From Hyphomonadaceae bacterium (GTDB lineage: Bacteria > Pseudomonadota > Alphaproteobacteria > Caulobacterales > Aquidulcibacteraceae): a stretch of DNA of 24,000 nucleotides. Both the position numbers and the translations under genes were made by a program. Where the stretch lies: the NCBI GenBank assembly GCA_016791445.1, contig JAEUMP010000012.1, forward strand, positions 14,949-38,948, given 5' to 3'. Positions 223 to 17,769 of this stretch are shown here, piece after piece; the stretch's first letter is position 1, and every line of letters starts with the position of its first letter. The notes beneath the pieces are model-generated. The model ran no database searches and was not told where the DNA came from. It worked only from the letters and a program-made list of their open reading frames with translations.

Positions 223-386
223 AGCCCGGGCATTTCGCCGTCATCCGCGCGGACCGCAGCGCGAGGCCCGGGCGTCGCGAAAATAATTCAGTCTCCCGCT
301 GCGGGGTTTTGCCGGCCCGTTTGTCTTTCCCCCTGAACGGCGCGCGCCAAGGCGCCGACAGACACCGCGTTGGGGAGACACACACC

Positions 387-3300: not shown

Positions 3301-3578
3301 CCGGCGCGCTCAACTACACCGACGACTATCTCGATACGCTGAGCACGCCCGCACGACGCATCGACGCCTGGCGCACGTGGGATGTCCAGATCGCACGCAC
3401 ATGGCGCGCCGATGCCGACAATGGGCAAAAGCCCGGCGTCGAGGCCACACTCAATGTCCGTAACATCACCGACGCCGATCCGCCCTTCGCCAACAATCCC
3501 GTCGGCATGGCGTTCGATACGCTCAACGCCTCGCCGCTCGGACGCTTTGTGTCTTTCGAGATCCGACGCCGATGGTGA
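387..3578 (+). CDS. TonB-dependent outer-membrane receptor/transducer with an N-terminal STN signalling domain (FecA/FpvA-like)
   Basis: The ORF-track frame 309-3578 begins at a TTG; I prefer the ATG at 387 (MKHADKG...), which has GGGGAG 9 nt upstream. A signal-like AALAACLAAALPAAAAAQA is followed by an STN-like segment (LVAFDIAPQPLAAALSDFARQAGVPALFAYGDV...GRFTREEALERLTAGLGL). Then come an Ala/Gly/Ser/Pro linker, a plug domain (DEVVVTGTRIRG...IEATGRTSIQDVLQTLP, RVEVLADGASATYGSDAVGGVVNIILR) and a long beta-barrel ending in an aromatic residue (...FEIRRRW). Confidence 0.9.
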   Translation: MKHADKGPRHGRACDARRQKSRNGDRDADARGARRRHAALAACLAAALPAAAAAQARDGATPDAASADRARTLVAFDIAPQPLAAALSDFARQAGVPALFAYGDVAQTRANGVHGRFTREEALERLTAGLGLSARLTSAGLVVDAPSALDPDRSGGDGAARTDGAHTQTSPPSGARAGAPRAEAQSPNAGSASATMGAAAPSMDEVVVTGTRIRGAPPTGSHVVTIDRDAIEATGRTSIQDVLQTLPQAFSGSQNELTQLNSTAGGRNIAFSASVDLRGLGADATLTLVNGRRLAPAGFGNFVDISAVPLAAVDRVEVLADGASATYGSDAVGGVVNIILRRDFNGAETTVRYGAATAGALEEKGLSHVFGATRGRSAFLAGYEYRARDALAASDRAFAADTDLRRFGGSNFSRTNANPGNIIRVGTTVTAFAIPAGQNGITLRQSDLIAGQLNFQNGNEGASLLPAQESHGLFMSARLPLGDRIELFADALGSRRKANASDNQLATTLVVPATNAYRQLNGLFPGTQPITVAYFLGDDLGPLRYATTSDTHAITGGLEIDIARAWRLEATATFGGHSDAVRFSNAFDSTAIAGALASSDPATAFNPFGDGAHTPAAVLRNLTLTQATDSDSDIRAYAIKADGPLFALPAGVVRAAVGAERREEAFAITRVERRASGLLVPAALQAPGERAVSAVFGELYLPLLSAEAGLPLVESLAASLSVRHESSDDFGDATTPKAGVRLDAAGGLSLRGAWGKSFKAPQFVQLLGGTGGTISSAPVSIDPFATNGSTGTLQITGANPNLRPETAETWTLGFDLSPPALKGLTLSATYFDIDFANRISTPGSILDALRNSAAYAGFLIRDPTPEQIAAYLAIPSRTAGTIPPDGIEAIWDERLTNLASLRVRGVDLSGAWRVETSAGAITLAASASKLMEFRRQSNPVVPAINPLDTILNPVDWRGRASLAWSGDHWRLSGALNYTDDYLDTLSTPARRIDAWRTWDVQIARTWRADADNGQKPGVEATLNVRNITDADPPFANNPVGMAFDTLNASPLGRFVSFEIRRRW

Positions 3579-5734
3579 GCGACGCGCGCACGCGCTGTCG
3601 CCTCGCGGTCCTTGCAGGCGCGCTCGCCGCACTCGTCGCCTGCGTCATCGGCGCAGGCGGCGCATGGGCGACCCCGCGCGCGCGCGACGCAAGTCTTGAA
3701 CGCGCACACGCCATGCAACACGCGCTCCTTGCCTTGGTCGATCTGGGCGGGCGCCGACACGGCATGACGCTGTCGCCCGATGGACGCACCATTGCTGTCT
3801 TTCGCCGCACCACACGCCTTCTTGAGAACGACTACCGCTACGAACTCCTGCTCGTCCCCCTCGACACACCCCCGCCCCTCGACAAGGCCCAAGTCACCAC
3901 ACGGGACACGACACCGGCCACGACCCCGGACATGGCGGCGGCGCGCATCCTCGCCGACGCCGGGGACGCCAACCTGCATACTGCAGACGGGCGTCCCTCC
4001 GGCGCGCTCGCCGACCGGATCGCACGCTGGTCCCCGGACGGACGCGAACTCGCCTATCTCGCCCACAGGCAAGACGTCATCTCGCTTGAGCGCGTGCGCA
4101 TCGCCGACGGCGGCGTTCGCGTCGTCGCCACGGGGCCAGGCGACATTGCCGACTTCGCCTGGCTTGCCGACGGCGGTCTCGTCTTTCGCCGCAACACTAC
4201 ACGGATCGCCCAGGCGCGCGCGTGGCGCGACGGCGCCGTCGCCGGCTATCGCGTCGACGATGCGTTCGATCCCGCCTTCAGCCTGAGACCGCAGAGCATC
4301 GCTCGCGGCGATGACGCGGTTTTCGTCGCTGCGCCCGACGGGCGCCTGCGCGCCGCCGCCCCGCACGAGGCCGCACGTCTCGCACCGTCGCCTGCACCTG
4401 CAGGGGCCATCGACAACGCCGCCGACGCGAGGGGGCGCCGCGCATGGCTCGCCCCGCGACATCCGGGCGATCGCGCCTATCGGCCGACGCTTGCGGTCTT
4501 CACAGACCACGAGGGACGCGCCCTCATGTGCGCCGATCCAGCCTGCCAGGGGCGACTGACACGCGTGTGGCGGACGCGCGAGGAAGTCATCTTCCAGAAA
4601 GCGGAAGGGTTCGCCGACGTCGAAACCGCGCTCTATGGCTGGCGTCCCGACAGCGGGCGCGTGCGCCTCATCCGGCGCGCCGACGACCTCCTGAACGATT
4701 GCGCGCTTGCCGCCGCGCGGCTCATCTGTCTTCACGAGGCCGCGCTCTCACCGCGCCGCGTCGTCGCCGTCGCGCTGTCCGACGGCCGGCTTGCCGCGAT
4801 CCACGATCCCAACCCCTCCTGGCGGGGGGCGCCCCTGACCGCCGTCGAGCGTCTCGACGGTCACGACCATCTCGGCAACGCCTTCTTCGCCCGCATCGTG
4901 CGGCCCGCAGGTCACCGGCGCACCGAGCGCTACCCGCTCGTCATCGTGCAATACCGCGCGCGCGGCTTTCTGCGGGCAGGCACGGGCGGCGAATATCCGA
5001 TCCACATGTTCGCGGCCCGCGGCTATCTGGTGGCCAGCATGGATCGCCCGGATCCTCGCACCCTCCACGCCGAGCTGAGCGCCGCCGACCTCTCGCGGCG
5101 CACCGAGTTCGATGGGAGCGAACAGTCAATGAAGCAGTCCGCGCTCGAAACGCTGATCGCGCGCCTTGACGCGCGCGGTCTCATCGATACCGGCCGCATC
5201 GCCATCACCGGCATGAGCGACGGCGCCGAGACCGTCTATTGGGCGCTCACGCGACCGACCGCCTTCGCCGCCGCCGTCACAAGTTCCCCGCCCATCGACC
5301 CGAGCGCCTGGACGCTCAGTTCGGAACGATTCCGTCGCCTGCGGCGCGCCGAGGACGCCGCGAGCGGCGACTGGCCGGATGCAAACCCCGACTGGGCCGC
5401 CTGGTGGGCGCGCAACACCACGACACGACGCGCCGAACACATTGTCACGCCGCTGCTCATGAACCTCTCCGAAAGCGAGGCGCTGCGCGGCTTTCCGCTC
5501 GCCTCGCGCCTCAACGATCTCGGCAAACCGGTCGAGACCTATATCTATCCCGGCGCCTTCCACGCCAAATGGCGCCCGCAGCAGATCCTCGCCGCCCAGA
5601 CACGCGCCCTCGACTGGATCGATTTCTGGCTCCTCGACGCGCTCAACCCCGCTCCCGACGATCCAGGGCGCGCCGGACGCTGGCGCGCCATGCGCGACGA
5701 TCATCGCTCCCGCCTGCCGGGCACGCCGCCCTAG
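3572..5734 (+). CDS. Lasso-peptide isopeptidase candidate (S9 prolyl-oligopeptidase fold, AtxE1/AtxE2-like)
   Basis: The 720-aa product has an N-terminal half typical of a beta-propeller (repeated SPDG/ADGG strands) and a C-terminal alpha/beta-hydrolase. The hydrolase carries a GxSxG nucleophile elbow (ITGMSDGAE), an acidic stretch (PLLMNLSESE) and a His (YPGAFHAKW). The start ATG overlaps the receptor stop (ATGGTGA). The gene lies next to lasso B/C genes and a TonB-dependent receptor, the context known for AtxE-type isopeptidases. The N-terminus MVSDARTRCRLAVLAGALAALVACVIGAGGAWA|T resembles a Sec signal peptide. Confidence 0.75.
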   Translation: MVSDARTRCRLAVLAGALAALVACVIGAGGAWATPRARDASLERAHAMQHALLALVDLGGRRHGMTLSPDGRTIAVFRRTTRLLENDYRYELLLVPLDTPPPLDKAQVTTRDTTPATTPDMAAARILADAGDANLHTADGRPSGALADRIARWSPDGRELAYLAHRQDVISLERVRIADGGVRVVATGPGDIADFAWLADGGLVFRRNTTRIAQARAWRDGAVAGYRVDDAFDPAFSLRPQSIARGDDAVFVAAPDGRLRAAAPHEAARLAPSPAPAGAIDNAADARGRRAWLAPRHPGDRAYRPTLAVFTDHEGRALMCADPACQGRLTRVWRTREEVIFQKAEGFADVETALYGWRPDSGRVRLIRRADDLLNDCALAAARLICLHEAALSPRRVVAVALSDGRLAAIHDPNPSWRGAPLTAVERLDGHDHLGNAFFARIVRPAGHRRTERYPLVIVQYRARGFLRAGTGGEYPIHMFAARGYLVASMDRPDPRTLHAELSAADLSRRTEFDGSEQSMKQSALETLIARLDARGLIDTGRIAITGMSDGAETVYWALTRPTAFAAAVTSSPPIDPSAWTLSSERFRRLRRAEDAASGDWPDANPDWAAWWARNTTTRRAEHIVTPLLMNLSESEALRGFPLASRLNDLGKPVETYIYPGAFHAKWRPQQILAAQTRALDWIDFWLLDALNPAPDDPGRAGRWRAMRDDHRSRLPGTPP

Positions 5735-7560
5735 CCCGACAGCGCCGCGCGTGCGGCCTGTGCCTCGGCGCCGCGCCGCAGCCGCCGCAACCAGAGCTCC
5801 GCGGCAAGATGCACCATCAAGGCGCTGGAGACCGCGCCGTCGCTCACCGTATCGGACGCAAGGAGACGCCGGGCGGTCGCATCATCGAGAAGGCCCAGAC
5901 GCCTGAGCTCGCCGTCGTGCAGCACCGCGCGCATGAAGGCGAGATTGCGCGACACGACAGCTGCGAAGAAGCGCGTGGTCTCACCCTTGGTGGTGCGCGC
6001 CGCCACCGACGGCGAGAGCCGTGATGCAAACGCATCGCGCACCAGGCCGCGCTCACGACCGCCATGGGTCATCACATAGGCCGGGATCGACAGACACGTC
6101 TCGATGACCGGCTGGGACAAAAGCACCGGCGCACTGCGCACGCGCGTATTGAGCACGCCCGGCGCCTGATAGCGCACCGCGTCGAGGAGATGGGCCACAC
6201 GCAGCGCCTGCGCGGGCGGCTGGCGCGCGCCGGTCGCCAGCCAGGGATGACGTTCAAGCGCGTCTCCCGCGCTGGCGCGCGATGATCCGGCGCGCGCGCG
6301 CAAGAGCGGCGCCCGCGCCAGTCCATGAAGCGCTGCGACCCACGCCACCGCCCAGATTGACCGCCCCGTCAGACGCGCAACCGCCTCCACGATCGCGCCG
6401 ACCTCACGCGCCGTCTCGCCCAGCCACACCGCGTCCGCCGCGATCAGCGGCGAACGACTGCGGTGAAAGAGATGGTCCCCCGCCTGCCCCGACGCCACGA
6501 AATCCACCCCAAGACGGTGCGCCGTCTCCAGTAGCGTCGTGTTGGCGAAACCGAGCAGCGAGGTCGTCGGAGAGACGAAAAGCGGCGCCTCCAGCACGCG
6601 CGCATAGTCGACCGCCGCAGGCGTCATCTCCACTTCGATGACCTCCCTGCCCCAACGCGCCGCCGCCGCGCGCGCCATCTGTCGCTCGTCGCCTTCCGGC
6701 ACATCGCGCGCATATTCGTTCACGCAAAGGACCTCGCACGTATCCGGCGCGCCCTCTTGCGCCAGACACGCCAGGACGATGCTGGAATCGAGCCCGCCCG
6801 AGAGACGCACCATGGCGCGCCGCGCGGTTGTCCCCCAGGCGCGCACCGCAAGCGTCACACTTGATGAAAGGCGCATCGCCGCGTCCGCCGCGCTCTCACG
6901 CACGCCGCCCGCGCGCCGCCGCGCGGGCGCGAAATCCTGCGGCCGCCAGAGTGTGTCGCGCGACACCGTCTCGCGTGAGAACGTGAAACGCTCGCCGGGC
7001 TGCACCAGGGTGACGCCCTTAAGCCCCGTGCGTGCGGACGCAACGCCCGGGTCTTTGAGGAACGCCGCCAGATAGGCGCAATCCGGCAAAAGCGCCCCGC
7101 CGAGTGCGGCGAAATCCTCCGCATGCGAGAAGACCACATGCACCGCGCCGATCTGTGCGTAGTGTGCATGACGATGTCCGCTCGGATCGCGCAGCACATG
7201 GACGAGGTCATAGCCCCGGTCGATCAGCACCGCGACAAACCCGCCCCAATAGTCCCTGAAGAGCGCCTCCCCGCCACCCGCGCAGATCCGACCGGTCTCG
7301 CGCGTCTCCATGTCGGTCGCGCGTGCGCCCGTGACGGTGAACAACGCACCGAAGATCGCGCCTCGCCCCTGCGAGAGCGTCAACGCCGCCACATCCTCGG
7401 GCGCTGCGCGCACCAGCAGGAGGACCCCGCGCCAGTCCACGATCACCGACCAGGCGCATGTCTCGCCGGTCGGGCCCGTCAGCGCGTCCGCCATGCGCCG
7501 CGCTTCGGCCTCGCGCACGCGGTCCACAGGCGTCCAGCGCAGGAGGACAAACCGCAGCAC
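5731..7560 (-). CDS. Lasso-peptide cyclase (C protein; asparagine synthetase B-like, isopeptide-bond forming)
   Basis: The 609-aa product carries the PP-loop ATP-pyrophosphatase motif (VRLSGGLDSSIVLACLA) inside an AsnB-like C-terminal domain, with a degenerate N-terminal domain. The GTG start at 7560 lies 9 nt after the B gene stop. An alternative ATG at 7494 cannot be excluded. Confidence 0.85.
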   Translation of the reverse strand: MLRFVLLRWTPVDRVREAEARRMADALTGPTGETCAWSVIVDWRGVLLLVRAAPEDVAALTLSQGRGAIFGALFTVTGARATDMETRETGRICAGGGEALFRDYWGGFVAVLIDRGYDLVHVLRDPSGHRHAHYAQIGAVHVVFSHAEDFAALGGALLPDCAYLAAFLKDPGVASARTGLKGVTLVQPGERFTFSRETVSRDTLWRPQDFAPARRRAGGVRESAADAAMRLSSSVTLAVRAWGTTARRAMVRLSGGLDSSIVLACLAQEGAPDTCEVLCVNEYARDVPEGDERQMARAAAARWGREVIEVEMTPAAVDYARVLEAPLFVSPTTSLLGFANTTLLETAHRLGVDFVASGQAGDHLFHRSRSPLIAADAVWLGETAREVGAIVEAVARLTGRSIWAVAWVAALHGLARAPLLRARAGSSRASAGDALERHPWLATGARQPPAQALRVAHLLDAVRYQAPGVLNTRVRSAPVLLSQPVIETCLSIPAYVMTHGGRERGLVRDAFASRLSPSVAARTTKGETTRFFAAVVSRNLAFMRAVLHDGELRRLGLLDDATARRLLASDTVSDGAVSSALMVHLAAELWLRRLRRGAEAQAARAALSG

Positions 7561-7569
7561 CGGCTCCGC

Positions 7570-8202
7570 TCACACCGACGCCAGCGGCGTGAAGGACCGG
7601 CAATGGTCCAGCGCGTCGTTGATCACCACGCCCGCGCATTGCACCCAGCAGTGCGCCGCAAACGGTCGCGCCCGCACGCCGACAACGAGGTCCGGGCGAT
7701 GGCGCCGCGACACCAAAAAGTGCATCAGCGCGAGCGAATCGAAGAGACACACCCGTCGTGCAGGATACCAAAGCCGCGTCCGGTAGAATTGCGCGACGTC
7801 CGCCGACAGGACCGTGCGGGCGTTGCCCGCACGCCGCTTGCGCCGACCGAGCGCGCGAAACGCCCGCTCGAGATTGCCGCTCTGAAGATCCATCGCTGCG
7901 CGTGCGCACGCCCAAAGGACACGCGCCCCTGAAGCCCGCGACGGCGCTCCTTCCAGCGGCGGTTGTGCATCGTGCGGTCGCTCGATCCTGCGCGCCATCG
8001 CGATCGCGGCGCCTCCGGGCGTCAGAAGGCCTTCCTTGAGGAGGCGGTCGATGAGCGCGCCGCGCGCCGGCCCGGCCGTTTCGGCGAGACGCGCAAGGGG
8101 CGCTGCCCAATACCGGTTGCGGCGCAGATCGAGAAAGAGGAGGCAATCCGCATCGACGCACGCGCGAACATGCGCAGGCAGGCCATAACCATCGATCGAC
8201 AT
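7570..8202 (-). CDS. Lasso-peptide B protein (fused B1 PqqD-like leader-recognition element and B2 transglutaminase-like Cys protease)
   Basis: The 210-aa product has an N-terminal segment (VRACVDADCLLFLDLRRNRYWAAPLARL...IDRLLKEGLL) resembling a PqqD/RRE fold. The C-terminal segment (RVCLFDSLALMHFLVSRRHRPDLVVGVRARPFAAHCWVQCAGVVINDAL) matches the McjB-type Cys...His...Asp core. GGGAG lies 6 nt upstream of the ATG. Confidence 0.85.
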   Translation of the reverse strand: MSIDGYGLPAHVRACVDADCLLFLDLRRNRYWAAPLARLAETAGPARGALIDRLLKEGLLTPGGAAIAMARRIERPHDAQPPLEGAPSRASGARVLWACARAAMDLQSGNLERAFRALGRRKRRAGNARTVLSADVAQFYRTRLWYPARRVCLFDSLALMHFLVSRRHRPDLVVGVRARPFAAHCWVQCAGVVINDALDHCRSFTPLASV

Positions 8203-8252
8203 CTGACGCTCCCAAAATGCGCGATGTGCGTGCGAAACGCTTCCAGCGCCAA

Positions 8253-8280
8253 GGAGACGCGCCGTCGCCGGCGCGCCTCC
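8253..8280 (-). promoter_or_regulatory. GC-rich stem-loop in the A-B intergenic spacer (candidate attenuator or mRNA-stabilising hairpin)
   Basis: On the minus-strand RNA, GGAGGCGCGCC-GGCGAC-GGCGCGUCUCC forms an 11-bp stem (one G-U pair) with a 6-nt loop. It starts 15 nt after the precursor stop codon and has no following U-tract. Confidence 0.5.
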
Positions 8281-8294
8281 CCGTGGCGCGCGCC

Positions 8295-8423
8295 CTATTC
8301 GTCGCGCGCTTCCGGCTCGACATAGTTCTCCTTGAGGATGTCGTCCGGCAGCCCCAGCGTGCGCTCGCTCGCGCGTCCGAGATCGATGACGCCGTCTTCG
8401 ATGGGATCGTGTTGGGCTTGCAT
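8295..8423 (-). CDS. Lasso-peptide precursor (A peptide), 42 aa: MQAQHDPIEDGVIDLGRASERTL|GLPDDILKENYVEPEARDE
   Basis: I hand-translated the minus strand. GGAGG lies 5 nt before the ATG (complement of 8421-8423) and the TAG stop is the complement of 8295-8297. The ORF is too short for the ORF track. It sits directly upstream of B-C on the same strand. Thr is at -2 relative to the predicted core Gly1, and Glu is at core position 9 (ring acceptor). An in-frame alternative ATG at 8435 would add MEVN but has no SD. Confidence 0.8.
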   Translation of the reverse strand: MQAQHDPIEDGVIDLGRASERTLGLPDDILKENYVEPEARDE

Positions 8424-8526
8424 GTTCACCTCCATGGTGCGGCCGCCGTTTGCGGCCACGAACACGATCGCGCCGACCTGCAGTGCTTCCCAGTCAACTC
8501 TGGTGAATGTTTCGTGCGATGTCCGC

Positions 8527-9219
8527 TCAGTCGCCGTTTCCGCCGAGCGCGCGCAGGACGGCGCGCTCGCGCAACAGCTTTGCCGCTTTCACGCGTCTGC
8601 CATGATAGCGTCGCAGCGCCGCCCGCAGCGACGAGGCCGCCCCCTGCCGAAGACGCGCGGCGAGGTCGTCGAGTTCGCGATCGACATCGCCAAAGAGCTC
8701 GGCCTCCGCGCGCCTTGCGGCATGAAGACGGTCATCGGCATTGACGCCCGCGCGCCTGAGTTCAGGATTGGCGCGCCCCTCCACCGATTGCAGGATCGCC
8801 GCCACACGCAACGGATAGCCGGAGTTCGCTTCAACGCCCGTAGCAGCGCCGCCTGCAACGAGGGCGCCCGCTGCAGGCACATCCACGACAGCGTCATTCG
8901 CGATAGCGTCCTTCGCAACCGGGACCGCGTCGGCGTGCGTTGCGAGCGCGCCCGCCGCCAGCCAGGCGCGCCACTCATAGAGCGCGCGCAGTTCACTTTC
9001 GCTCCAGAGCGAAACGAAAAAGCCCCTGCTCGGTCGCGCGGTGATCAGACGTTCCGCAGCGAGCCGCACGAGCGCTTCGCGCACAGGCGTGCTGCTTGCG
9101 CCCAGTCCATCGGCCAGCGCGCCGACATCGAGACGCGCATGCAGGCGATAGTCGCCGGCAAGGAGCCGGCGACGTATCTCGTGATAGACACGATCGCTGA
9201 CAGGCGGATCAGCCGCCAT
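8527..9219 (-). CDS. GntR-family transcriptional regulator
   Basis: The N-terminal wHTH (SDRVYHEIRRRLLAGDYRLHARLDVGALADGLGASSTPVREALVRLAAERLITARPSRGFFV) matches the GntR signature and is followed by a helical effector domain. I prefer the ATG at 9219 (MAADPP...) over the track start at 9264. That start overlaps the stop of the upstream dioxygenase gene by 11 nt. Confidence 0.85.
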   Translation of the reverse strand: MAADPPVSDRVYHEIRRRLLAGDYRLHARLDVGALADGLGASSTPVREALVRLAAERLITARPSRGFFVSLWSESELRALYEWRAWLAAGALATHADAVPVAKDAIANDAVVDVPAAGALVAGGAATGVEANSGYPLRVAAILQSVEGRANPELRRAGVNADDRLHAARRAEAELFGDVDRELDDLAARLRQGAASSLRAALRRYHGRRVKAAKLLRERAVLRALGGNGD

Positions 9220-10174
9220 CCACCGGCTGTGTCTGTGCAGACGCGCCGACCCGATAGTGCGCATCGAGTTCGGCCTGGATGTCCGGCGTCAGCGCGTCGA
9301 TATGGGGCGCGCGTGCGCACGTCTCGCCGAGGGCCGCGATCGGGTCCTGCCCTTCCCAGCCGCCGAGATTGGGACGATGCATCCGGTAGCCGATCAGGCG
9401 CTGCAGTTCCTCGGGAAACGACCGCGCCACGGACGGCGGATAGGCAAGGAACTGGTTTTCATACTGTTTCAGCCAGCCGAGACAGTACGAGACGATGACG
9501 CCCGTGCGCGGGTGCGCCGAGCGGTTGGCGCCGGCGCCATGCGTGAGCGCGCCGATGAAGAGAAGCGCCGAACCGCGCGCCATCGCGCCGGCCACGCTGG
9601 TGTGCGGATCGACCTCGCGGTCGAGCGCCCCGCGATGACTGCCGGGCCAAAGGCGCGTGGCGCCGTTCGCTTCAGTAAAGTCGCTGACCGCCCACATCAC
9701 GTTGAGCAGCCATGGCGTCTCGCCCTTGGGACAGGGCCACATTTCCTCGTCCCGGTGCGGCGCCTGGGCGCGCTCGCCTGGATGCACCTGCACGGCCTGG
9801 GTGAGATTGAGCTGGATGCAGTCGCATGCCGGGGCGAGAAGCGCGTCGGCTATTGCGACAATCACCGGGTGGAGCACGAGCGCGTGCGCCGACGGCGCCT
9901 TGTCGAGAAGTCCCCCGACACGGGTCGTGCGCCAGCCGTAGAAATCGCCCACGCAGCGCGGCGTGGCGGCAAGCCACGGCGCGAGTTCATCGTCGAGGCG
10001 CGCGACATCCTGCGGGTCGATGAGCGCGTCAAGAATGACAAAGCCGTCGCGTCCGAGCGCCGCGAGCGCCGTCTCGACGATCGACTGCAGCTGCGGCGCA
10101 CCGGACGACGTTGCATCGTCCGCTCGGCGGCATGGACCGGTCCCGGCTGGGGTGTTTGCAACAAGAGGGTTCAT
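9209..10174 (-). CDS. Phytanoyl-CoA dioxygenase (PhyH) family Fe(II)/2-oxoglutarate-dependent oxygenase
   Basis: A HxD...H facial triad is visible (QAPHRDEEMW ... GALTHGAGAN), with a downstream Arg (HPRTGVIVSY) and typical PhyH blocks (ANGATRLWPGSH). I prefer the ATG at 10174 (MNPLVAN...), which has GGAG 7 nt upstream, over the track start at 10240. Confidence 0.85.
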   Translation of the reverse strand: MNPLVANTPAGTGPCRRADDATSSGAPQLQSIVETALAALGRDGFVILDALIDPQDVARLDDELAPWLAATPRCVGDFYGWRTTRVGGLLDKAPSAHALVLHPVIVAIADALLAPACDCIQLNLTQAVQVHPGERAQAPHRDEEMWPCPKGETPWLLNVMWAVSDFTEANGATRLWPGSHRGALDREVDPHTSVAGAMARGSALLFIGALTHGAGANRSAHPRTGVIVSYCLGWLKQYENQFLAYPPSVARSFPEELQRLIGYRMHRPNLGGWEGQDPIAALGETCARAPHIDALTPDIQAELDAHYRVGASAQTQPVDGG

Positions 10175-10236
10175 GGAAAATCTCCGTGGTGGGTGGCGTC
10201 GGCATGGATGGGCGCGCCTCGACGCGCCCGCACGGC

Positions 10237-10866
10237 TCACGCCGCCGCCGGCAAGACGGCCGCAGCAAAGCGCGTCATGGGACCAGTGAGGCTGTTGCGT
10301 GCGCGCACGGCGTTCAGCCCCTCCGGGGTGATCGCTGCGGTGATCGCGCGCACGCGTTCACGCCCCATGCGCATTGTCGGTCCAAGCGGCGCTGCGTCCC
10401 AGCCGATCGCCATCGCCAGCGGCGCGAGCGCGGCGCCCGCCACGAAGGTCACACGCTCCATGCCGAAGAGAAGTCCCGTCTCCATGATGCCGGCGATCAT
10501 GCGCGCCAGGAGCGCCTGACGCGGCGCGCCCTTGGCGATCTGCGGCGCAGGACAAAAGCGCGACACTTCCCAGATCCGCGCCCCGCGCGGCACGCCCGTC
10601 ACGCACAGATGCGCAAACACCTCGCTCATGAGATGCGCCCGCGCCGTCGGCAGGAGACGCACCGAACCGGTGACGGCGCCGTCGTGCGCCGCCGTCTCCA
10701 CGAGATAGACCGCATCGGCGGCGTCGAACTGGTCGATCTCAAGCCCCTGCGGCGCCTCAAGTCCCCAGCGCATGCGATCGATGAAAACCGACTTGCGATG
10801 GCGGTGCATCTCCATCAGCGCGTGCCGGAAGAGATGGCGATTGTCTTCGGTGATGATGTGGATCAT
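10237..10866 (-). CDS. Acyl-homoserine-lactone synthase (LuxI family)
   Basis: The 209-aa product shows conserved LuxI blocks: FRHALMEMHRHRKSVFIDRMRWGL, EIDQFD, GSVRLLPT and IWEVSRF. GGAG lies 5 nt upstream of the ATG. Confidence 0.9.
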   Translation of the reverse strand: MIHIITEDNRHLFRHALMEMHRHRKSVFIDRMRWGLEAPQGLEIDQFDAADAVYLVETAAHDGAVTGSVRLLPTARAHLMSEVFAHLCVTGVPRGARIWEVSRFCPAPQIAKGAPRQALLARMIAGIMETGLLFGMERVTFVAGAALAPLAMAIGWDAAPLGPTMRMGRERVRAITAAITPEGLNAVRARNSLTGPMTRFAAAVLPAAA

Positions 10867-10922
10867 GGGCGCTCCGTCGAAAGCCGCCGGAGCATGGGCC
10901 GCCCGTCGCGCGCCGCGATATG

Positions 10923-10936
10923 GGTCCCACAGGACC
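10923..10936. promoter_or_regulatory. 14-bp palindrome GGTCC-CACA-GGACC in the luxR-luxI spacer (candidate operator)
   Basis: This is a perfect 5-bp inverted repeat with a 4-bp spacer, centred about 63 nt upstream of the luxI ATG. It lies in a locally AT-richer patch that also contains TTGTCA on the coding strand. Confidence 0.3.
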
Positions 10937-10956
10937 TCTTGACAAATTTTCCGTGT

Positions 10957-11694
10957 CTAATCCGCCAGATCGTCAATGCGGATCTGGCCGTCGAGCACGG
11001 CGCGCACGACTGCCTGCACCCTGAACGCCACGCCGTAGCGCTTCTTGGCGCGCTCGATGGTGTTGTGGACGGTGCGCTCATGAATGCCCAGCATCCGCCC
11101 GATGACCCAGTCGCTCTTGCCTGCGCCCGCAAGCGCCAGACACTCGCGCTCGCGCGCGCTCAGTGCGGGGCGCAATGCGTGCGCGCCGTCGTCGAGCAAG
11201 GCCCGCGCGCGCTCGTGCGCATAGACCGCCATGAGGAAGACGGCCGGCACCTGAAGGGGATCGACGCCGTCGGGCCCGGGCACCAGCGAACACGAGGCAG
11301 GTAAGGCGCCCGGAGAATGGATGGGGATGGTCAGGCCGTTGGCGAGCCCGATCGCGGCCGCGTCCTGGAGAATGTCGCGCTGCAGACGCGTGAGACGGCG
11401 CCCCTTGAGCACGTCGTCCCAGAAGAACGGCACAGCACTCGTTCGCGCCGCCATGAAGACGGGGTCGTGCGCGGCGTAGTTTTCCGCAGAGAACCGCGCC
11501 AGCCACGCCGCCGGATAATTGATCATGTTCACCGCACCGGGCGGGGGGCGCAACGGATCGACGTGCGAACAACACGCCACATAGGCAAAGCCCATCGCCG
11601 CCATGTCGGCGAACAGGACGTCGCGCACCGCGTCTGCGCTCGCCGCGGCGCGGCACTTCTCCATGAACTCGATCGCGACCCGGCTGGACGGCAT
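10957..11694 (-). CDS. LuxR-family acyl-HSL-responsive transcriptional regulator
   Basis: The N-terminal autoinducer-binding-like domain (GFAYVACCSHVD...YPAAWLARFSAENYAAHDPVF...PFFWDD) is followed by a C-terminal LuxR HTH (LSARERECLALAGAGKSDWVIGRMLGIHERTVHNTIERAKKRYGV). I prefer the ATG at 11694 (MPSSRV), which has GGAG 5 nt upstream, over the TTG at 11796. Confidence 0.9.
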   Translation of the reverse strand: MPSSRVAIEFMEKCRAAASADAVRDVLFADMAAMGFAYVACCSHVDPLRPPPGAVNMINYPAAWLARFSAENYAAHDPVFMAARTSAVPFFWDDVLKGRRLTRLQRDILQDAAAIGLANGLTIPIHSPGALPASCSLVPGPDGVDPLQVPAVFLMAVYAHERARALLDDGAHALRPALSARERECLALAGAGKSDWVIGRMLGIHERTVHNTIERAKKRYGVAFRVQAVVRAVLDGQIRIDDLAD

Positions 11695-11795
11695 GCGTGC
11701 TCCACTGCCGCGCCCCGTCTTGCATTCACACAATCGCGACGCCGGGACGCGGATTGACTGCGCCTCAAGTCGCTGCGGGCGCGCAGTGCAGGACA

Positions 11796-11813
11796 ATGGG
11801 CAAAACTGCCCAT
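11796..11813. promoter_or_regulatory. 18-bp tra-box/lux-box-like palindrome ATGGGCA-AAAC-TGCCCAT
   Basis: This is a perfect 7-bp inverted repeat with a 4-bp spacer. It matches the Agrobacterium TraR tra box ATGTGCAGATCTGCACAT (recalled from memory) at 14 of 18 positions. Its centre is about 110 nt upstream of the luxR ATG. Confidence 0.4.
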
Positions 11814-12307: not shown

Positions 12308-13648
12308 TCAACGCGCTTGTGCGTCCTGCGCCGCCACCGCGCGCGCGAAGGCGCCGAGGCCCGACCAAAGCACCAGAGCCGACAACGGCAGCGCGCACGC
12401 CGCAACGATCGCCATCGCGTATCGCAACATCGCGTCGTCGCGGAACAGGAAGTCGTTCAGCGCGGCGACCGCCATCGGCCCCAGTCCGAGACCGATCAGG
12501 TTCGCCATGAAGAAATAGAGCGCCGTCACCTGCCCCCGAAACGCATTGGGCGTGATCAACTGCAGGGCGGCCCCGGCGACGCCGCCGTGCATGGACGACA
12601 ACAGCACCGCCGGCGCCAGGAGCGCAAAGGCGCCCACAGGGCTCGCCATGAGGGGCGCTGCGACAAAGAAAGGCGCCGACGACGCCACCGCTATGATGAC
12701 GGCGATGAGGTGTCCCGATCGCAGGCCCTTGCGGAACAACAGATCTGCCAGCACACCCCCGAGGATCAAGCCAGCAGCCCCGCCCGCCGCCATGATCACG
12801 CCGAAGATCATGCCGGCGTCAGCCGGCGCCATACCATAGGTGCGGGCAAAGAAGGTCGGGTACCACGCGAGCCCGCCATAGATGACGAAGGTCAGCAACG
12901 ACAGGCCGAGAAAGTGTCCGCCATACGCGCGCCAGCGCGCGCCGACATAAGCAAAGACAGCGCCGAATTTTTCCGCACGCACGCCCTCGCCGCCACGACG
13001 CGCCGGCTCGCGCACGCTCAGCATCAACAGCGCCACCAGAAGTCCAGGCAGACCGACCATGAAGAATACAAGCCGCCAGGGCTCCGTCTCGCCGAGCACA
13101 GGCAATACCGGCGCTGGCGACTGCGTGGCGAATTTGACGACTAGGCCGCCGACGATCAAAGCAATGCCCGATCCCAGCGGCACGCCGATCGAATAGACCG
13201 CCATCGCGCGACCGAGACGGTGCTTCGGGAAGTAGTCGCTCAGCATCGAATAGGCGGCCGGCGACAACGCGGCCTCTCCGACGCCGACGCCCAATCGCGC
13301 CAGGAAGAGTGCGGCATAGGTCGGCGCCAGACCGCACAGCGCCGTCATCACGCTCCAGAAGGCGATGCCGATGCTGATGATCCGCTGGCGGTTGGCGCGG
13401 TCGGCCAGATACCCGAGCGGCAATCCCATCAGCGTATAGAAAGCGGCAAACGCCAGACCATGAAGAATGCTGAATTCGAAGTCAGATATCTGCAGATCCG
13501 CGCGTATCGGCGCCACCAGCAGACTGAGGATCATCCGGTCGATGAAAGAAACCGTGTAGGCCACAAGCAGCACCGCCACAGCCCACCAGGCAAGCGTCGG
13601 CGCAGGCCACGGCGCCTCGCCGCGAGCGGGATCGGTGTGCGTGTCCAT
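12308..13648 (-). CDS. Major facilitator superfamily (MFS) transporter
   Basis: The 446-aa product is polytopic and hydrophobic, with about 12 hydrophobic segments. It carries the MFS loop 2-3 motif (GLPLGYLADRANRQR) and ARLGVGVGEAALSPAA. Confidence 0.9.
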   Translation of the reverse strand: MDTHTDPARGEAPWPAPTLAWWAVAVLLVAYTVSFIDRMILSLLVAPIRADLQISDFEFSILHGLAFAAFYTLMGLPLGYLADRANRQRIISIGIAFWSVMTALCGLAPTYAALFLARLGVGVGEAALSPAAYSMLSDYFPKHRLGRAMAVYSIGVPLGSGIALIVGGLVVKFATQSPAPVLPVLGETEPWRLVFFMVGLPGLLVALLMLSVREPARRGGEGVRAEKFGAVFAYVGARWRAYGGHFLGLSLLTFVIYGGLAWYPTFFARTYGMAPADAGMIFGVIMAAGGAAGLILGGVLADLLFRKGLRSGHLIAVIIAVASSAPFFVAAPLMASPVGAFALLAPAVLLSSMHGGVAGAALQLITPNAFRGQVTALYFFMANLIGLGLGPMAVAALNDFLFRDDAMLRYAMAIVAACALPLSALVLWSGLGAFARAVAAQDAQAR

Positions 13649-13659
13649 GGGCAGTCGCC

Positions 13660-14166
13660 TCAGCAGATTTCAAAGATGGTGTAGCGGACGCCGGCGCCGG
13701 TCCTTCGTCCCAATCCGATCGCCACGGTCCGGTTCAGCCACCCATAGCGCGGGTCGGCCGTCTCAAAGACCGGGGTCACGCGAAAATAATAGCGCTGCGG
13801 ATCCAGGCATTCGACTTCGTCTGGATTCCGGAACACGCCGAGCACGTCCTTCGGTATGACCAGTCTCCCCTGATAGGTCACATAGATGTCCGCATCATCA
13901 TGCGTGCGCCACAGCGACCGCACGTCGATCAGCGTCAGCGCGTCGCCTGCCTCGTCCACGCCAAGTTCCGACCAGTCTCCGCCGCCCGCACACACCACGC
14001 CGCGCACCCGGTCGCCGGTCACGGTCCCCCCGCCGATGTAACTCACGCGCCGGTTGCGCCACGGCGATCGGCCCAGCGCGATCGGCGCATCCTTTTCCAG
14101 CGTAATGTCGGCGACACACAGCGGGCGCGTGATCACCGCTCCAAAATCCTCGATTGCTGTCGTCAT
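13660..14166 (-). CDS. DUF3237-like beta-barrel protein of unknown function
   Basis: Using the ATG at 14166 (MTTAIEDFG...; GGAG upstream) gives 168 aa. The pattern SYIGGGTVTGDRVRGVVCAGGGDWSEL...DVRSLWRTHDDADIYVTYQGR...FRVTPVFET resembles the DUF3237 family. The stop is 11 nt from the MFS start, so the two are probably co-transcribed. Confidence 0.55.
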   Translation of the reverse strand: MTTAIEDFGAVITRPLCVADITLEKDAPIALGRSPWRNRRVSYIGGGTVTGDRVRGVVCAGGGDWSELGVDEAGDALTLIDVRSLWRTHDDADIYVTYQGRLVIPKDVLGVFRNPDEVECLDPQRYYFRVTPVFETADPRYGWLNRTVAIGLGRRTGAGVRYTIFEIC

Positions 14167-14450
14167 GCGTCTGGTCTCCAGCCCTTTGTATGTCGCGCCG
14201 CCTACGGCGCGCTCACGCCACGCCTGCATCTTTGACTTCACTTCCTGAGTTGCATCTTGCCCCGATCTGCGTGGCTGATGCCGCCCCGCCCCGGCTGTTC
14301 GCTCCTGCCCTTCACCCCCGCACTCCACCGCACTTCACCCCGGCGCGTCTCTGCCGAGCCTCGCCGCTGACCTGCGCCCCGCGCGCCAGGCCGCTCACGC
14401 CCCGGTCGCGCGCGTACGAGCGCGCCATATCGCCTGCCGGACGCCCCGCA

Positions 14451-14478
14451 TTGCCAGACGTCGAGAAATCCATAATAT
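14451..14478 (+). promoter_or_regulatory. Candidate sigma70-type promoter TTGCCA-N16-TAATAT for the downstream TonB-dependent receptor
   Basis: The hexamers were read directly, in an AT-richer patch within otherwise GC-rich DNA, about 115 nt upstream of the ATG at 14595. Confidence 0.35.
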
Positions 14479-14485
14479 GCGAAGG

Positions 14486-14505
14486 ATGCTTAGGCTCCTA
14501 AGTAT
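14486..14505. promoter_or_regulatory. Palindromic operator candidate ATgCTTAGG-CT-CCTAAGtAT
   Basis: The perfect core CTTAGG-CT-CCTAAG spans 14489-14502. Extended to 20 bp it has one mismatched pair. It lies immediately downstream of the candidate -10, a repressor-type position. Confidence 0.35.
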
Positions 14506-14594
14506 TTTGTGGGCCTGCAGAAAACCGGCGCAAACAGCCGGAGCAAACACAAACGAGCCCGGGGCCCAGCGCCTCCGGCCAGGGAGGTTAAGAC

Positions 14595-16778
14595 ATGTCG
14601 CGATCCCTTCTGAAACAAGGCGGCTCGCTCGCCGCCCTGTCTTGTGTCCTCGCCTTCGGACTGGCCGGGCCAGCCCACGCACAGCAGGAAGGCACAGCCA
14701 TCGACCCCATCGTGGTGACAGCACAAAAGGTCGAACAGGACCTGCAGGATGTCCCGATCGCCATTACCGCGTTCTCCGCAGAACAACTGCGCGTGAACCG
14801 CGCCGACAGCGTGCTCGACGTCGCACAACGCACGCCCGGATTCACCTCGACTGAAGTCAACCCTGCCGAACCCAACTACGTCATTCGCGGCATCGGCACC
14901 GAAGGCATCAACTCCAACGCAGGCGGTGACGCCTCGGTCGTCATGTTCATCGACGGCGTCTACATCGGCCGCGGCGGCGGCTCGAACCTTGAACTCTTCG
15001 ATCTGGCGCGCGTGGAAGTCCTGCGCGGACCGCAAGGCACGCTCTTCGGCAAGAATGTCGTCGGCGGCGCGATTTCGCTGGTCTCGCGACGCCCCGATGC
15101 AGAACCGTTCGTCGAACTCTCCGCCGGCGCAGGCAACTACGACCGTCGTGAGTTCCGGGCACGCTTCAATCAACCGCTCTCCGACAACGTCTTCGCATCA
15201 GGCGCCTTCTCCATGCGCCAGCGCAGCGGCTATTCCTTCAACCAGACGACCGGCAATGACGTCGACGATGAAGACACCTACGGCTTCCGGGGATCGCTCC
15301 GCTACAAGCCGAGCGACAAGTTCGATGTCGTGGTGACTGCCGACTATTCCAAGCAGGACCAGAACGGCCAGGTCCGCGACAATGTCTGCGACGCCACCTT
15401 CAATGGCGGCGTGCACTGCGTCGGCGTCAACCCGGACCCGCGCATCACGAACGCCATCGTCGACGGCTTTTTGCGGCGCGAAGTGAGCGGCATCCTCGCC
15501 GACGTGACCTGGAATACGAATTTTGGCGTCGTCAGCTCGCTGACCGCCTATCGCAAGGCCGACTTCGATTTCCAGGACCCCTTCTTCTCCAACCCGGTCA
15601 ATCCGCCGACACAGATCGAGTCCATCAACCGCAATATCGAATCCTCCAGCCAGTTCAGCCAGGAGCTGCGCCTTGCGTGGAGCGCGCTGAATGAACGCCT
15701 CACCGGCGTCGTGGGCGGCTACTTCCTGCACGAGGACATTGAGCGCGACGAACAACTCGACCAGCGGTTCCCGGCGCCCGCGCAGACCGGATACGGCTCG
15801 TTTCCCCAAGACGTTGAGGCGCGATCGACGGCTCTCTTCGGGCAAGCGACGCTCGCTGTGACCGACCGGCTCGATGTGACGCTCGGCGCGCGTATGACGT
15901 GGGAAGAAAAGGACGCGCACCTGCAGGCGATCAGGCGCGCGGGTCCAGGCTGGCCCCCGCCGATGGCCGAGGAATACAATGTCCGTGCAAGCAAGAGCTG
16001 GGATGCATTCACGCCCCGCGCCGCGGTGACCTATAAGGCCTCCGATGACGTGCTGCTCTATGTCAGCGCCGCGCGCGGCTTCAAGAGCGGCGGCTTCCAG
16101 GGCACCGCAGGCACGGCCGCCAGCGCCGCCGTCGCCTACAATCCCGAATTCGCGTGGACCTACGAGCTGGGCATCAAATCGCAGTGGCTCGACAACTCCC
16201 TTCGGCTCAACGTCGCGGCCTTCCAGACCAACCACACCGATCTGCAGATCTCCCAGCTTGTCCCCTTGTGCTGCGTCGTCATCGGCAATGCGGCGGAGGC
16301 CGAGATCCGCGGCGTGGAAGCCGAACTTCTCTGGCGCCCTGTGCGCGGCCTCGACTTCAACGGATCCTACACCTACCTCGACGCGACATTCGTGGACTTC
16401 GCCACCGGCGCCACAGCGAATTTCACCGGCAACACGCTGCCACGATCGCCGGAACACAAATTCAACGCCGGCGCCCAGTATCGCTGGTCGCTCGGCGAGA
16501 GCGGCGGCGCATTCATCCGGGCGGACTACACCTACCAGACCGACTATTTCCTCGAAGCGTCCAACACGCCGCTGGAAGTCCAGGACGGCTATGGGATCGT
16601 CGATGCACGCGCGGCCTATGAAAGCCCCTCAGGCGCCTGGGAGGTCGCGCTCTGGGGCAAGAACCTCACCGACGAACTCGTCGCCACGCACATGACTGCG
16701 TTCGCGCCCTTCCGCCAACAGCTCAACATCTATCAGCCGCCGCGCACCTTCGGCGTGAGCCTCACCTTCCGGAACTGA
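14595..16778 (+). CDS. TonB-dependent outer-membrane receptor (no STN domain)
   Basis: GGGAGG lies upstream of the ATG. A signal peptide (LAALSCVLAFGLAGPAHA|QQ) is followed by a TonB-box/plug region (DPIVVTAQKVEQDLQDVPIAITAF, RVEVLRGPQGTLFGKNVVGGAISLVSRRP) and a barrel with a typical C-terminal strand (PRTFGVSLTFRN). Confidence 0.9.
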   Translation: MSRSLLKQGGSLAALSCVLAFGLAGPAHAQQEGTAIDPIVVTAQKVEQDLQDVPIAITAFSAEQLRVNRADSVLDVAQRTPGFTSTEVNPAEPNYVIRGIGTEGINSNAGGDASVVMFIDGVYIGRGGGSNLELFDLARVEVLRGPQGTLFGKNVVGGAISLVSRRPDAEPFVELSAGAGNYDRREFRARFNQPLSDNVFASGAFSMRQRSGYSFNQTTGNDVDDEDTYGFRGSLRYKPSDKFDVVVTADYSKQDQNGQVRDNVCDATFNGGVHCVGVNPDPRITNAIVDGFLRREVSGILADVTWNTNFGVVSSLTAYRKADFDFQDPFFSNPVNPPTQIESINRNIESSSQFSQELRLAWSALNERLTGVVGGYFLHEDIERDEQLDQRFPAPAQTGYGSFPQDVEARSTALFGQATLAVTDRLDVTLGARMTWEEKDAHLQAIRRAGPGWPPPMAEEYNVRASKSWDAFTPRAAVTYKASDDVLLYVSAARGFKSGGFQGTAGTAASAAVAYNPEFAWTYELGIKSQWLDNSLRLNVAAFQTNHTDLQISQLVPLCCVVIGNAAEAEIRGVEAELLWRPVRGLDFNGSYTYLDATFVDFATGATANFTGNTLPRSPEHKFNAGAQYRWSLGESGGAFIRADYTYQTDYFLEASNTPLEVQDGYGIVDARAAYESPSGAWEVALWGKNLTDELVATHMTAFAPFRQQLNIYQPPRTFGVSLTFRN

Positions 16779-17391: not shown

Positions 17392-17769
17392 ATGATTACT
17401 ATGAGTTCGCCGAAATCGAGATCAGCCCTTGCCCAGATGGGGAAGGATTTGCGCGCCGCACGGCTACGCCGCCAGATAACGGCGGTAGATCTCGCCGCAC
17501 GCGCTGGAACCTCTCCGAACACAGTTGCGAGGCTGGAAAAGGGGGATTCAGGGGTCGCAATTGGGACCCTGGCCGACGTGCTGGTCGCGCTCGGGCTCAT
17601 CGCGCGGCTGGGCGACCTTGTGGACATTCGCAAGGACGAGCTTGGTCTTGCCCTCACCGTTGAGCGCATGCCGCGACGCGCGCGCGCGCCCAGAACGCGC
17701 GGCAAAGCAAAAGAGGGAGCGACCCGGACGACGCCGGGCGCCTCGGACCCTGACGGCGCGGCATTCTGA
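17392..17769 (+). CDS. hipB: XRE-family HTH antitoxin (HipB-like)
   Basis: The HTH ITAVDLAARAGTSPNTVARLEKGDSGVAIGTLADVLVALGL is followed by a basic disordered tail. The stop overlaps the hipA start (TGATG). An alternative ATG at 17401 is possible. Confidence 0.8.
   Translation: MITMSSPKSRSALAQMGKDLRAARLRRQITAVDLAARAGTSPNTVARLEKGDSGVAIGTLADVLVALGLIARLGDLVDIRKDELGLALTVERMPRRARAPRTRGKAKEGATRTTPGASDPDGAAF

Follow-up and report, generated by a model that had tools for sequence, protein, structure and literature searches.

Conserved linkage of a LuxR/LuxI-PhyH module to isopeptidase-type lasso peptide clusters in Hyphomonadaceae and sphingomonads, and a candidate relay through GntR

A 24,000 nt stretch of a metagenome-assembled Hyphomonadaceae genome (contig JAEUMP010000012.1; hereafter the window) carries a luxR-luxI quorum-sensing pair, followed by phyH and gntR, directly upstream of the lasso peptide genes A, B and C. 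A functional link between the quorum-sensing and lasso genes is strongly supported by comparative genomics. The reading we favour, with moderate confidence, is that a LuxR/LuxI circuit and its companion PhyH have been fused to an isopeptidase-type lasso cluster by way of that cluster's own GntR regulator, which would relay the acyl-homoserine lactone (AHL) signal to the lasso genes.

Genes of the locus

The genes luxR, luxI, phyH, gntR, A, B and C all lie on the minus strand, in that order, while an isopeptidase gene and a TonB-dependent receptor gene on the plus strand converge on C. Recomputed from luxR to C, the intergenic gaps are 90, 62, -11, 103, 92 and 9 nt. The order, strand and gaps are exactly those of the original prediction, which had been made without database searches, and the gene identities were confirmed with Pfam and NCBIfam. 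The window has a G+C content of 64-73%. The genes are:

10957-11694, minus strand: luxR, transcription factor responsive to AHL, 245 aa counted from the ATG at 11694
10237-10866, minus strand: luxI, AHL synthase, 209 aa (Pfam Autoind_synth, 2e-20)
9209-10174, minus strand: phyH, Fe(II)/2-oxoglutarate dioxygenase of the PhyH family, 321 aa (Pfam PhyH, 2.6e-28)
8527-9219, minus strand: gntR, FadR/FCD-like GntR regulator (Pfam GntR, 1.1e-16; PDB matches 3fms and 3sxy)
8295-8423, minus strand: lasso precursor A, 42 aa, leader ...IDLGRASERTL, core GLPDDILKENYVEPEARDE
7570-8202, minus strand: lasso B, leader peptidase with fused recognition part (Pfam Transglut_core3, 2.9e-17)
5731-7560, minus strand: lasso C, macrolactam cyclase (Pfam Asn_synthase, 5.1e-23)
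3572-5734, plus strand: lasso isopeptidase of the AtxE2 family (NCBIfam NF033523, 534.6 bits against a cut-off of 400)
309-3578, plus strand: TonB-dependent receptor (Pfam Plug and TonB_dep_Rec_b-barrel; a weak N-terminal STN match is below cut-off)

The open frame of luxR reaches further, to a TTG at 11796; LuxR proteins of relatives are 242-247 aa long. Pfam places an Autoind_bind domain (1.9e-31) at residues 54-196 and a GerE helix-turn-helix (7.4e-10) at residues 211-266. LuxI has R24, F28 and W34, residues named as absolutely conserved in its family (PMC3704786), and matches AHL synthases of the PDB at 9e-26 to 3e-12. The start of gntR overlaps the stop of phyH by 11 nt. Precursor A scores below the cut-offs of both hidden Markov models that match it, Pfam Subterisin (5.6e-5; 23.5 against 27) and NCBIfam benenodin (9.6e-6; 25.4 against 33), and is homologous to the precursors of relatives by alignment. 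It reads ...ERT-L-GLPDDILKE..., with Thr at leader position -2 and Gly1 and Glu9 in an Asp/Glu-rich core, G1 and E9 being the likely ring residues. Lasso B matches NCBIfam lasso_biosyn_B2 at 78.8 bits (cut-off 33), and lasso C is 100% identical to JNM47_08455 at NCBI, from a Hyphomonadaceae metagenome-assembled genome (MAG). The receptor frame opens at a TTG with a long N-terminal extension rich in Arg and Ala; this start is probably spurious, the true one lying downstream of 309. In relatives, FecR and extracytoplasmic function (ECF) sigma factor genes precede the receptor; in the present locus they would fall beyond the left end of the window.

Conservation of gene order in related genomes

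Relatives were collected in two samples. One was anchored on PhyH, with one genome per species, and comprised the 80 closest loci (numbered L006-L085), 64 of which have at least 4.5 kb of sequence downstream; the other was anchored on the cyclase and comprised 10 loci, the window included. A contig scan with the cyclase alone gave no match, the nearest relatives being about 40% identical, and was replaced by PhyH alignment and look-ups of cyclase homologues. Megablast of the region against plasmids likewise gave no match. The top 120 matches listed by the PhyH protein search were all Hyphomonadaceae-like, and tblastn against plasmids reached sphingomonads.

In the PhyH-anchored sample, gntR, B and C follow in the same order and orientation at 45 of the 64 loci, and B and C are found within 10 kb at 50 of the 64. 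Looked at from the other side, luxR and luxI lie within 10 kb of the cyclase gene at 7 of the 10 cyclase-anchored loci. The nearest cyclase relatives are 36-42% identical, and the order luxR-luxI-phyH-gntR-A-B-C persists where the cyclase is merely 30-50% identical. Three loci (L001, cyclase 41%; L005, 36%; and L088) have the full order together with a convergent S9 peptidase and TonB-dependent receptor. The same-order cyclase loci come from a Vitreimonas MAG, a Terricaulis MAG and one more metagenome contig; at one Terricaulis locus LuxRI is absent and the regulator is of the XRE type. As the arrangement recurs across species, the adjacency is far above chance. Genes beyond luxR on one side, and beyond the receptor and sigma factor arm on the other, differ between loci, so the conserved unit runs from luxR through the receptor arm. 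Synteny in relatives had been set beforehand as the test of the proposed link, with luxRI missing from beside every orthologous cluster as the outcome that would speak against it; luxRI was found next to orthologous clusters, with the same order kept.

Two or three complete luxR-luxI-phyH-gntR-lasso loci can occur in a single genome; for example, CAZZFE01 has three (L027, L036 and L061), as does CAYUOC01 (L020, L040 and L046), and JAIELJ01 has two (L014 and L043). Loci sharing one genome differ in their lux-box sequence and in their precursor peptides, and look like parallel, possibly orthogonal, signalling channels. At 17 loci (L006-L022, L026 series) a second luxR stands upstream of the luxR-luxI pair, recalling the 'double luxR' topology T of Sphingobium (PMC4288048). 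This second gene lies immediately upstream of the proximal luxR and is divergent, the two being about 37% identical. In the window, the region upstream of luxR was searched for remnants of such a second gene, and no trace was found.

The composite locus also occurs in cultured sphingomonads, where it is carried on plasmids. Plasmid NZ_CP032828 of Sphingomonas paeninsulae YZ-8 (L086) has the identical architecture in its RefSeq annotation, at genes D3Y57_RS01850-01890; a sigma factor and FecR are annotated there, together with a 'benenodin family lasso peptide' and an 'Atxe2 family lasso peptide isopeptidase'. On plasmid Lpl of Novosphingobium sp. PP1Y (L087), luxR-luxI-phyH-gntR is kept and stands beside a sigma-FecR-receptor-isopeptidase block and an inverted C-B-A; the lasso genes are 10 kb from gntR, which is still fused to luxI-phyH. 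Sphingosinicella also keeps luxR-luxI-phyH-gntR; its phyH and gntR lie beside a sigma-FecR-receptor-isopeptidase block with A-B-C on the opposite strand. Sphingopyxis indica and Blastomonas are known from two matches each, to phyH and C, about 7.5 kb apart and on opposite strands. Two further loci have LuxRI and no PhyH: L089, with the order luxR-luxI-x-luxR2-A-B-C-D, and L090, where a divergent luxI/luxR pair precedes two gntR genes and A-B-C-D. In PP1Y the composite locus lies between traG and the trb conjugation genes. Since it is plasmid-borne and so flanked, the whole signalling-plus-lasso unit is probably mobile.

The lux box and the probable luxI-phyH-gntR operon

The following elements were located around luxI:

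10920-10939, minus strand: lux box, the 20-bp dyad AGAGGTCCTGTGGGACCCAT with GTCA before it, centred 64 nt upstream of the ATG of luxI
10890-10897, minus strand: putative -10 element of the luxI promoter, CCATGCTC
10210-10229, minus strand: GC hairpin after the luxI stop; folds, with z = -0.63 against shuffled sequences

The lux box is unique in the window at up to three mismatches. A GTCA-anchored dyad of 18-20 bp, centred 60-75 nt upstream of luxI, is present in 56 loci, with exactly one box per locus. Its half-sites vary by locus family (GGCACG/CGTGCC, GGCCTG/CAGGCC, GGGCCG/CGGCCC or GGTCCC/GGGACC) while the dyad symmetry is kept, and the type of box tracks the LuxR clade. In most loci a CAWnCTC-like -10 element follows 20-24 nt after the box, a spacing that would place the box centre near -42 to -45 of the luxI promoter. 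Boxes of LuxR-type activators usually lie near -42.5 of the target promoter.

No second lux box was found upstream of phyH, or of the isopeptidase and receptor genes, in the window or in the 56 loci. Nor does a lux box precede A, at up to five mismatches, in the window or in any of these loci. Direct LuxR control of the lasso promoter is therefore not indicated, and was rejected for the architecture seen in the window.

Downstream of the box, the genes are closely packed. The luxI-phyH gap is 62 nt in the window, with a family median of 12.5 nt, and 59 loci give a median of -11 nt for the phyH-gntR junction (-11 in 22 and -17 in 11 of them). These short and overlapping junctions indicate that luxI, phyH and gntR form one operon. 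A terminator scan bore out the earlier statement that no canonical terminator separates luxR from C: three terminator-like matches were returned, a number not above chance, each either within C or on the opposite strand. The GC hairpin after luxI (10210-10229), described at the outset as the sole hairpin of the region, exists; the 'sole' does not hold, as a much stronger one is found at 8246-8289 and another at 8439-8459. The hairpin after luxI was rejected as a meaningful terminator, folding no better than shuffled sequences; nor is it conserved, the luxI-phyH gap being just about 12 nt in relatives.

The gntR-A gap and the hairpins flanking the precursor gene

Four elements were located between gntR and B:

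8483-8512, minus strand: promoter/operator-like block upstream of A, AAACATTCACCAGAGTTGACTGGGAAGCAC, in an aligned block conserved in position
8439-8459, minus strand: A leader hairpin, just 5' of the ribosome-binding site of A
8429-8433, minus strand: ribosome-binding site of A, GGAGG
8246-8289, minus strand: A-B hairpin, GC-rich and without a U-tract, -40.4 kcal/mol, z = -4.35 (0/200 shuffles)

All aligned loci have the block upstream of A. Around an invariant TTCA...ATC frame it carries three short repeats, spaced at about 12 nt, whose sequence tracks the GntR clade, not the LuxR clade. GntR cluster 7, for example, is paired with four different LuxR clusters and keeps a single block. Such a pattern suggests that the block is a promoter of A overlapped by a GntR operator.

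In 46 distinct leaders a hairpin lies 4-9 nt ahead of the ribosome-binding site (mean z of -2.57), and its stems are unrelated in sequence from leader to leader. For this reason RNAalifold returned no pairs (MAFFT cannot align unrelated stems), and the leaders were folded one by one and compared with shuffles. The Shine-Dalgarno sequence of A is paired in 89% of the minimum-free-energy folds, the GGAG often being bound by a CTCTC-like stretch upstream of it. Translation, or the stability of the mRNA, could be under the control of this hairpin. The luxI leader has a weaker hairpin than the A leader (mean z = -1.48).

After A, a strong hairpin is again common among relatives. The best 45-nt window within about 130 nt upstream of B reaches -20 kcal/mol or lower in 84% of 50 loci (mean z = -3.5), and some copies have T-tails. 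The A-B hairpin is likely an attenuator or a transcript-stabilising element, and would probably set the ratio of A to B-C transcript.

The original prediction had taken density-dependent control from contiguity, that is, from the genes being read as one terminator-free unit. In its full form, a single polycistron would start at the lux-box promoter and run through luxI-phyH-gntR-A-B-C, read-through alone making lasso production density-dependent. In its favour, all the genes run in one direction, their gaps are short and the window has no canonical terminator among them; their order is conserved among relatives, and no second lux box is present. However, the gntR-A gap of all loci contains the conserved promoter-like block and leader hairpin, the strong hairpin after A is conserved, with T-tails in some copies, and in PP1Y, Sphingosinicella, Sphingopyxis indica and Blastomonas A-B-C is encoded on the other strand, at a distance of 7-10 kb from gntR. 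The existence of these inverted arrangements means that read-through is not the conserved mechanism, and a single transcript is probably not the main route; as a complete explanation we regard it as unlikely. The functional link drawn from contiguity is strongly supported by synteny; its proposed basis in one uninterrupted transcript is not supported.

At two loci, L089 (8155-9137) and L075 (10716-11863), a second LuxR homologue replaces GntR directly upstream of the precursor gene. In L089, a GTCAA and a perfect 16-bp palindrome, GCGTACGGCCGTACGC, lie upstream of A, forming a lux-type box distinct from that of luxI. This locus gives independent support for control of these lasso promoters by LuxR-family proteins.

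Co-evolution of the two modules

Pairwise-identity matrices of 39 complete loci separate the proteins into two sets. LuxR, LuxI and PhyH co-vary with r = 0.88-0.91, and B, C and the isopeptidase (E) with r = 0.94-0.96, while between the signalling and lasso sets r is 0.32-0.40. From this low value it follows that the two modules recombine. GntR is intermediate, at r = 0.59-0.68 with either set. On these alignments, the modules stay linked despite recombination, with GntR as the hinge.

It might be asked whether the adjacency has any regulatory meaning. The modules could be hitch-hiking together on mobile islands or plasmids, with LuxRI controlling, say, conjugation or PhyH chemistry. The sphingomonad triad does occur on conjugative plasmids near trb and virB genes (PMC4288048), luxR-luxI-phyH without lasso genes and lasso clusters without LuxRI both occur, and the phylogenies of the two modules are partly independent. 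Against this, the exact order and the overlapping phyH/gntR junction are found in at least 45 species-level genomes with proteins 30-50% identical, and where a genome has several paralogous copies each of them retains the pairing. The linkage has also been re-created in at least three architectures, one of them with a LuxR homologue and a lux-type box before A, and flanking genes outside luxR and the receptor are not conserved. Adjacency of this kind is quite improbable as the product of hitch-hiking alone.

The role of PhyH

Of the proteins of the locus, PhyH is conserved best (mean identity 69%), whereas the precursors are hypervariable. With a correlation of about 0.9 with LuxR/LuxI and about 0.37 with B, C and E, PhyH goes with the signalling module, and it is probably not an enzyme that tailors the lasso peptide. 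Its nearest solved relatives are Fe(II)/2-oxoglutarate dioxygenases acting on small molecules, e.g., meroterpenoids, and not on peptides. These structures together with the co-evolution data make tailoring of the signal a better guess than tailoring of the peptide, and they hint that PhyH may modify the AHL or its acyl-coenzyme A (acyl-CoA) precursor, which would be an undescribed signal chemistry. Two of the four closest solved LuxI structures are deposited as a 4-coumaroyl-homoserine lactone synthase (6wn0) and an AHL synthase (3p2f). We take the structural relatives of LuxI to include RpaI (the 4-coumaroyl-homoserine lactone synthase) and BjaI, both acyl-CoA-dependent; 3p2f is presumably TofI, an enzyme using acyl-acyl carrier protein, and its match score is about equal to those of RpaI and BjaI.

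That PhyH instead hydroxylates Asp or another side chain of the peptide, making luxI-phyH-gntR-A-B-C a biosynthetic operon, is suggested by its position immediately upstream of the lasso genes in most loci, by the Asp/Glu-rich core and by CanE, an Fe(II)/2-oxoglutarate hydroxylase acting on a lasso precursor in Streptomyces canus (PMC9266682), but is very improbable given the co-evolution, conservation and structural data above, the widespread occurrence of the luxR-luxI-phyH triad without lasso genes (PMC3704786) and the presence of LuxRI without PhyH at the lasso loci L089 and L090.

Proposed regulatory circuit

The relay through GntR is built on the gene identities, the lux box, the junctions and their conservation, and on the co-variation of motifs with regulator clades. 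LuxI would make an AHL, possibly tailored by PhyH, and LuxR-AHL would bind the single 20-bp lux box at 10920-10939 and activate the luxI promoter, giving autoinduction. With luxI-phyH-gntR on one transcript, the abundance of GntR would become density-dependent, and GntR would then act, by activation or repression, on the locus-specific repeat block overlapping A's own promoter. The leader hairpin and the strong hairpin after A would shape the A-B-C transcript, with a possible contribution of read-through from gntR where, as in the window, the genes are co-directional. The TonB-dependent receptor would then sense or import the finished peptide, and the AtxE2 isopeptidase would linearise it. We infer the individual binding events, the transcripts and the direction of GntR action from these sequence features, and density-dependent control of lasso production, with its sign, would follow in the same conditional way. 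In PP1Y a trans-acting relay would be needed, since A-B-C is inverted and 10 kb away and gntR is still with luxI-phyH.

Several points weigh against the relay. The first is the lack of a lux box before A described above. The promoter and operator assignments draw on conservation and on a loose likeness to alphaproteobacterial promoters. If GntR is a repressor, quorum sensing could lower lasso production. The low correlation between the signalling and lasso proteins speaks for partly independent histories, 3 of the 10 cyclase-anchored lasso loci are without LuxRI, and luxR-luxI-phyH occurs without lasso genes at 14 of the 64 PhyH-anchored loci and on many sphingomonad plasmids. The PhyH-anchored sample is also phylogenetically non-independent, as it consists of the 80 closest relatives, mostly MAGs of one family.

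A wider interpretation, which we put forward tentatively and hold to be rather less likely than the relay itself, is that each cluster has a private AHL channel. Clade-specific pairs of LuxR and lux box, up to three per genome, would define the channels, with PhyH maybe tailoring the signal. The lasso peptide would be a second-tier, density-gated extracellular signal or public good, and its re-uptake (receptor to FecR and sigma factor) and destruction (isopeptidase) would close a two-signal circuit.

Comparison with known systems

All components are of known kinds, and LuxRI pairs inside biosynthetic clusters are familiar. In the canonical isopeptidase-type cluster, GntR precedes A, and the extra genes listed are those for GntR, the TonB-dependent receptor and sigma/anti-sigma factors only (PMC9266682); LuxRI is thus outside the canonical description, as had been supposed. 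The astexin/AtxE2, benenodin and subterisin clusters of Alphaproteobacteria likewise have gntR-A-B-C convergent with an isopeptidase of the AtxE2 family and a TonB-dependent receptor. FecR and ECF sigma factor genes are also part of such clusters and, for the present locus, are seen in relatives. Thr at -2, Gly1 and Glu9 of the core and the A-B hairpin are shared as well. The difference is that here the start of gntR overlaps the end of a lux-box-headed luxI-phyH operon, which would therefore place the regulator of the lasso cluster under the AHL circuit.

The other half of the locus corresponds to luxR-luxI-phyH, a recognised sphingomonad topology of unknown output (PMC3704786, PMC4288048, PMC5012321). 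The novR-novI-phyH genes of sphingomonads (Gan et al. 2013, 2015, 2016) have the same order, orientation and short luxI-phyH gap, and a GntR gene directly after phyH was noted at novINsub3 of Novosphingobium subterraneum (PMC5012321). Those papers mention no lasso genes, whereas the present triad runs into a lasso cluster in dozens of genomes and has a defined lux box.

Among quorum-sensing systems of biosynthetic clusters, btaR2-btaI2 is embedded in the bactobolin cluster of Burkholderia thailandensis (PMC6963729), and is likewise a dedicated AHL circuit in or beside a secondary-metabolite cluster, presumably gating its expression. In contrast to bactobolin, the product here is a ribosomal lasso peptide with an uptake and degradation arm, and control appears to be relayed through GntR and not exerted at a lux box of the biosynthetic promoter. 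Capistruin, a lasso peptide of Burkholderia, also responds to AHL signalling indirectly, via ScmR (PMC6963729); its cluster, by contrast, is of the ABC-exporter kind and lacks a linked LuxRI, a GntR and an isopeptidase, and its regulation is global.

AHL synthase, lasso core genes, isopeptidase and TonB-dependent receptor are co-located in the antiSMASH 'hserlactone/lassopeptide' hybrid regions of Qipengyuania pacifica NZ-96 and Citromicrobium sp. JL477 (PMC9318849). These are labels of automatic annotation, given without analysis of conservation, operon structure, lux box or regulation. A full-text search, with subscription journals outside its coverage, found no literature linking LuxRI to lasso clusters functionally. 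The luxR-luxI-phyH and gntR-lasso clusters are each known, and their conserved fusion is undescribed in the searchable literature.

Significance of the linkage

Isopeptidase-type lasso peptides are puzzling in that they are made, exported, re-imported and then deliberately linearised. To our knowledge, most of them have no known activity, antibiotic activity included. A two-signal circuit, if true, would explain why cells both make and destroy peptides of this kind. An AHL operon that ends in the cluster's own regulator points to when cells likely decide on lasso production, and the locus gives a testable handle on the function of these peptides in cultured strains. For experiments, Sphingomonas paeninsulae YZ-8 and Novosphingobium sp. 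PP1Y are available as carriers, and probably N. subterraneum as well. Either the cognate AHL or over-expression of LuxR might activate silent lasso clusters of this type. As candidates for orthogonal parts, the loci offer their clade-specific lux boxes and GntR operator blocks. The long-noted luxI-phyH(-gntR) synteny of sphingomonads gains a candidate regulon.

Neighbouring genes in the window

Upstream of luxR, positions 12308-16778 hold genes for a major facilitator superfamily (MFS) transporter (minus strand), a DUF3237 protein (minus strand) and a second TonB-dependent receptor (plus strand). They were rejected as members of the unit: as they are not conserved beside the module in relatives, they probably lie outside it. 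Further along, a HipB-like helix-turn-helix gene (17392-17769, plus strand; helix-turn-helix assigned by eye) overlaps the start of a HipA kinase gene (17769-19001; HipA_C, 2.6e-44). The two form a HipBA-type toxin-antitoxin pair (17392-19001) unrelated to the quorum-sensing and lasso locus.

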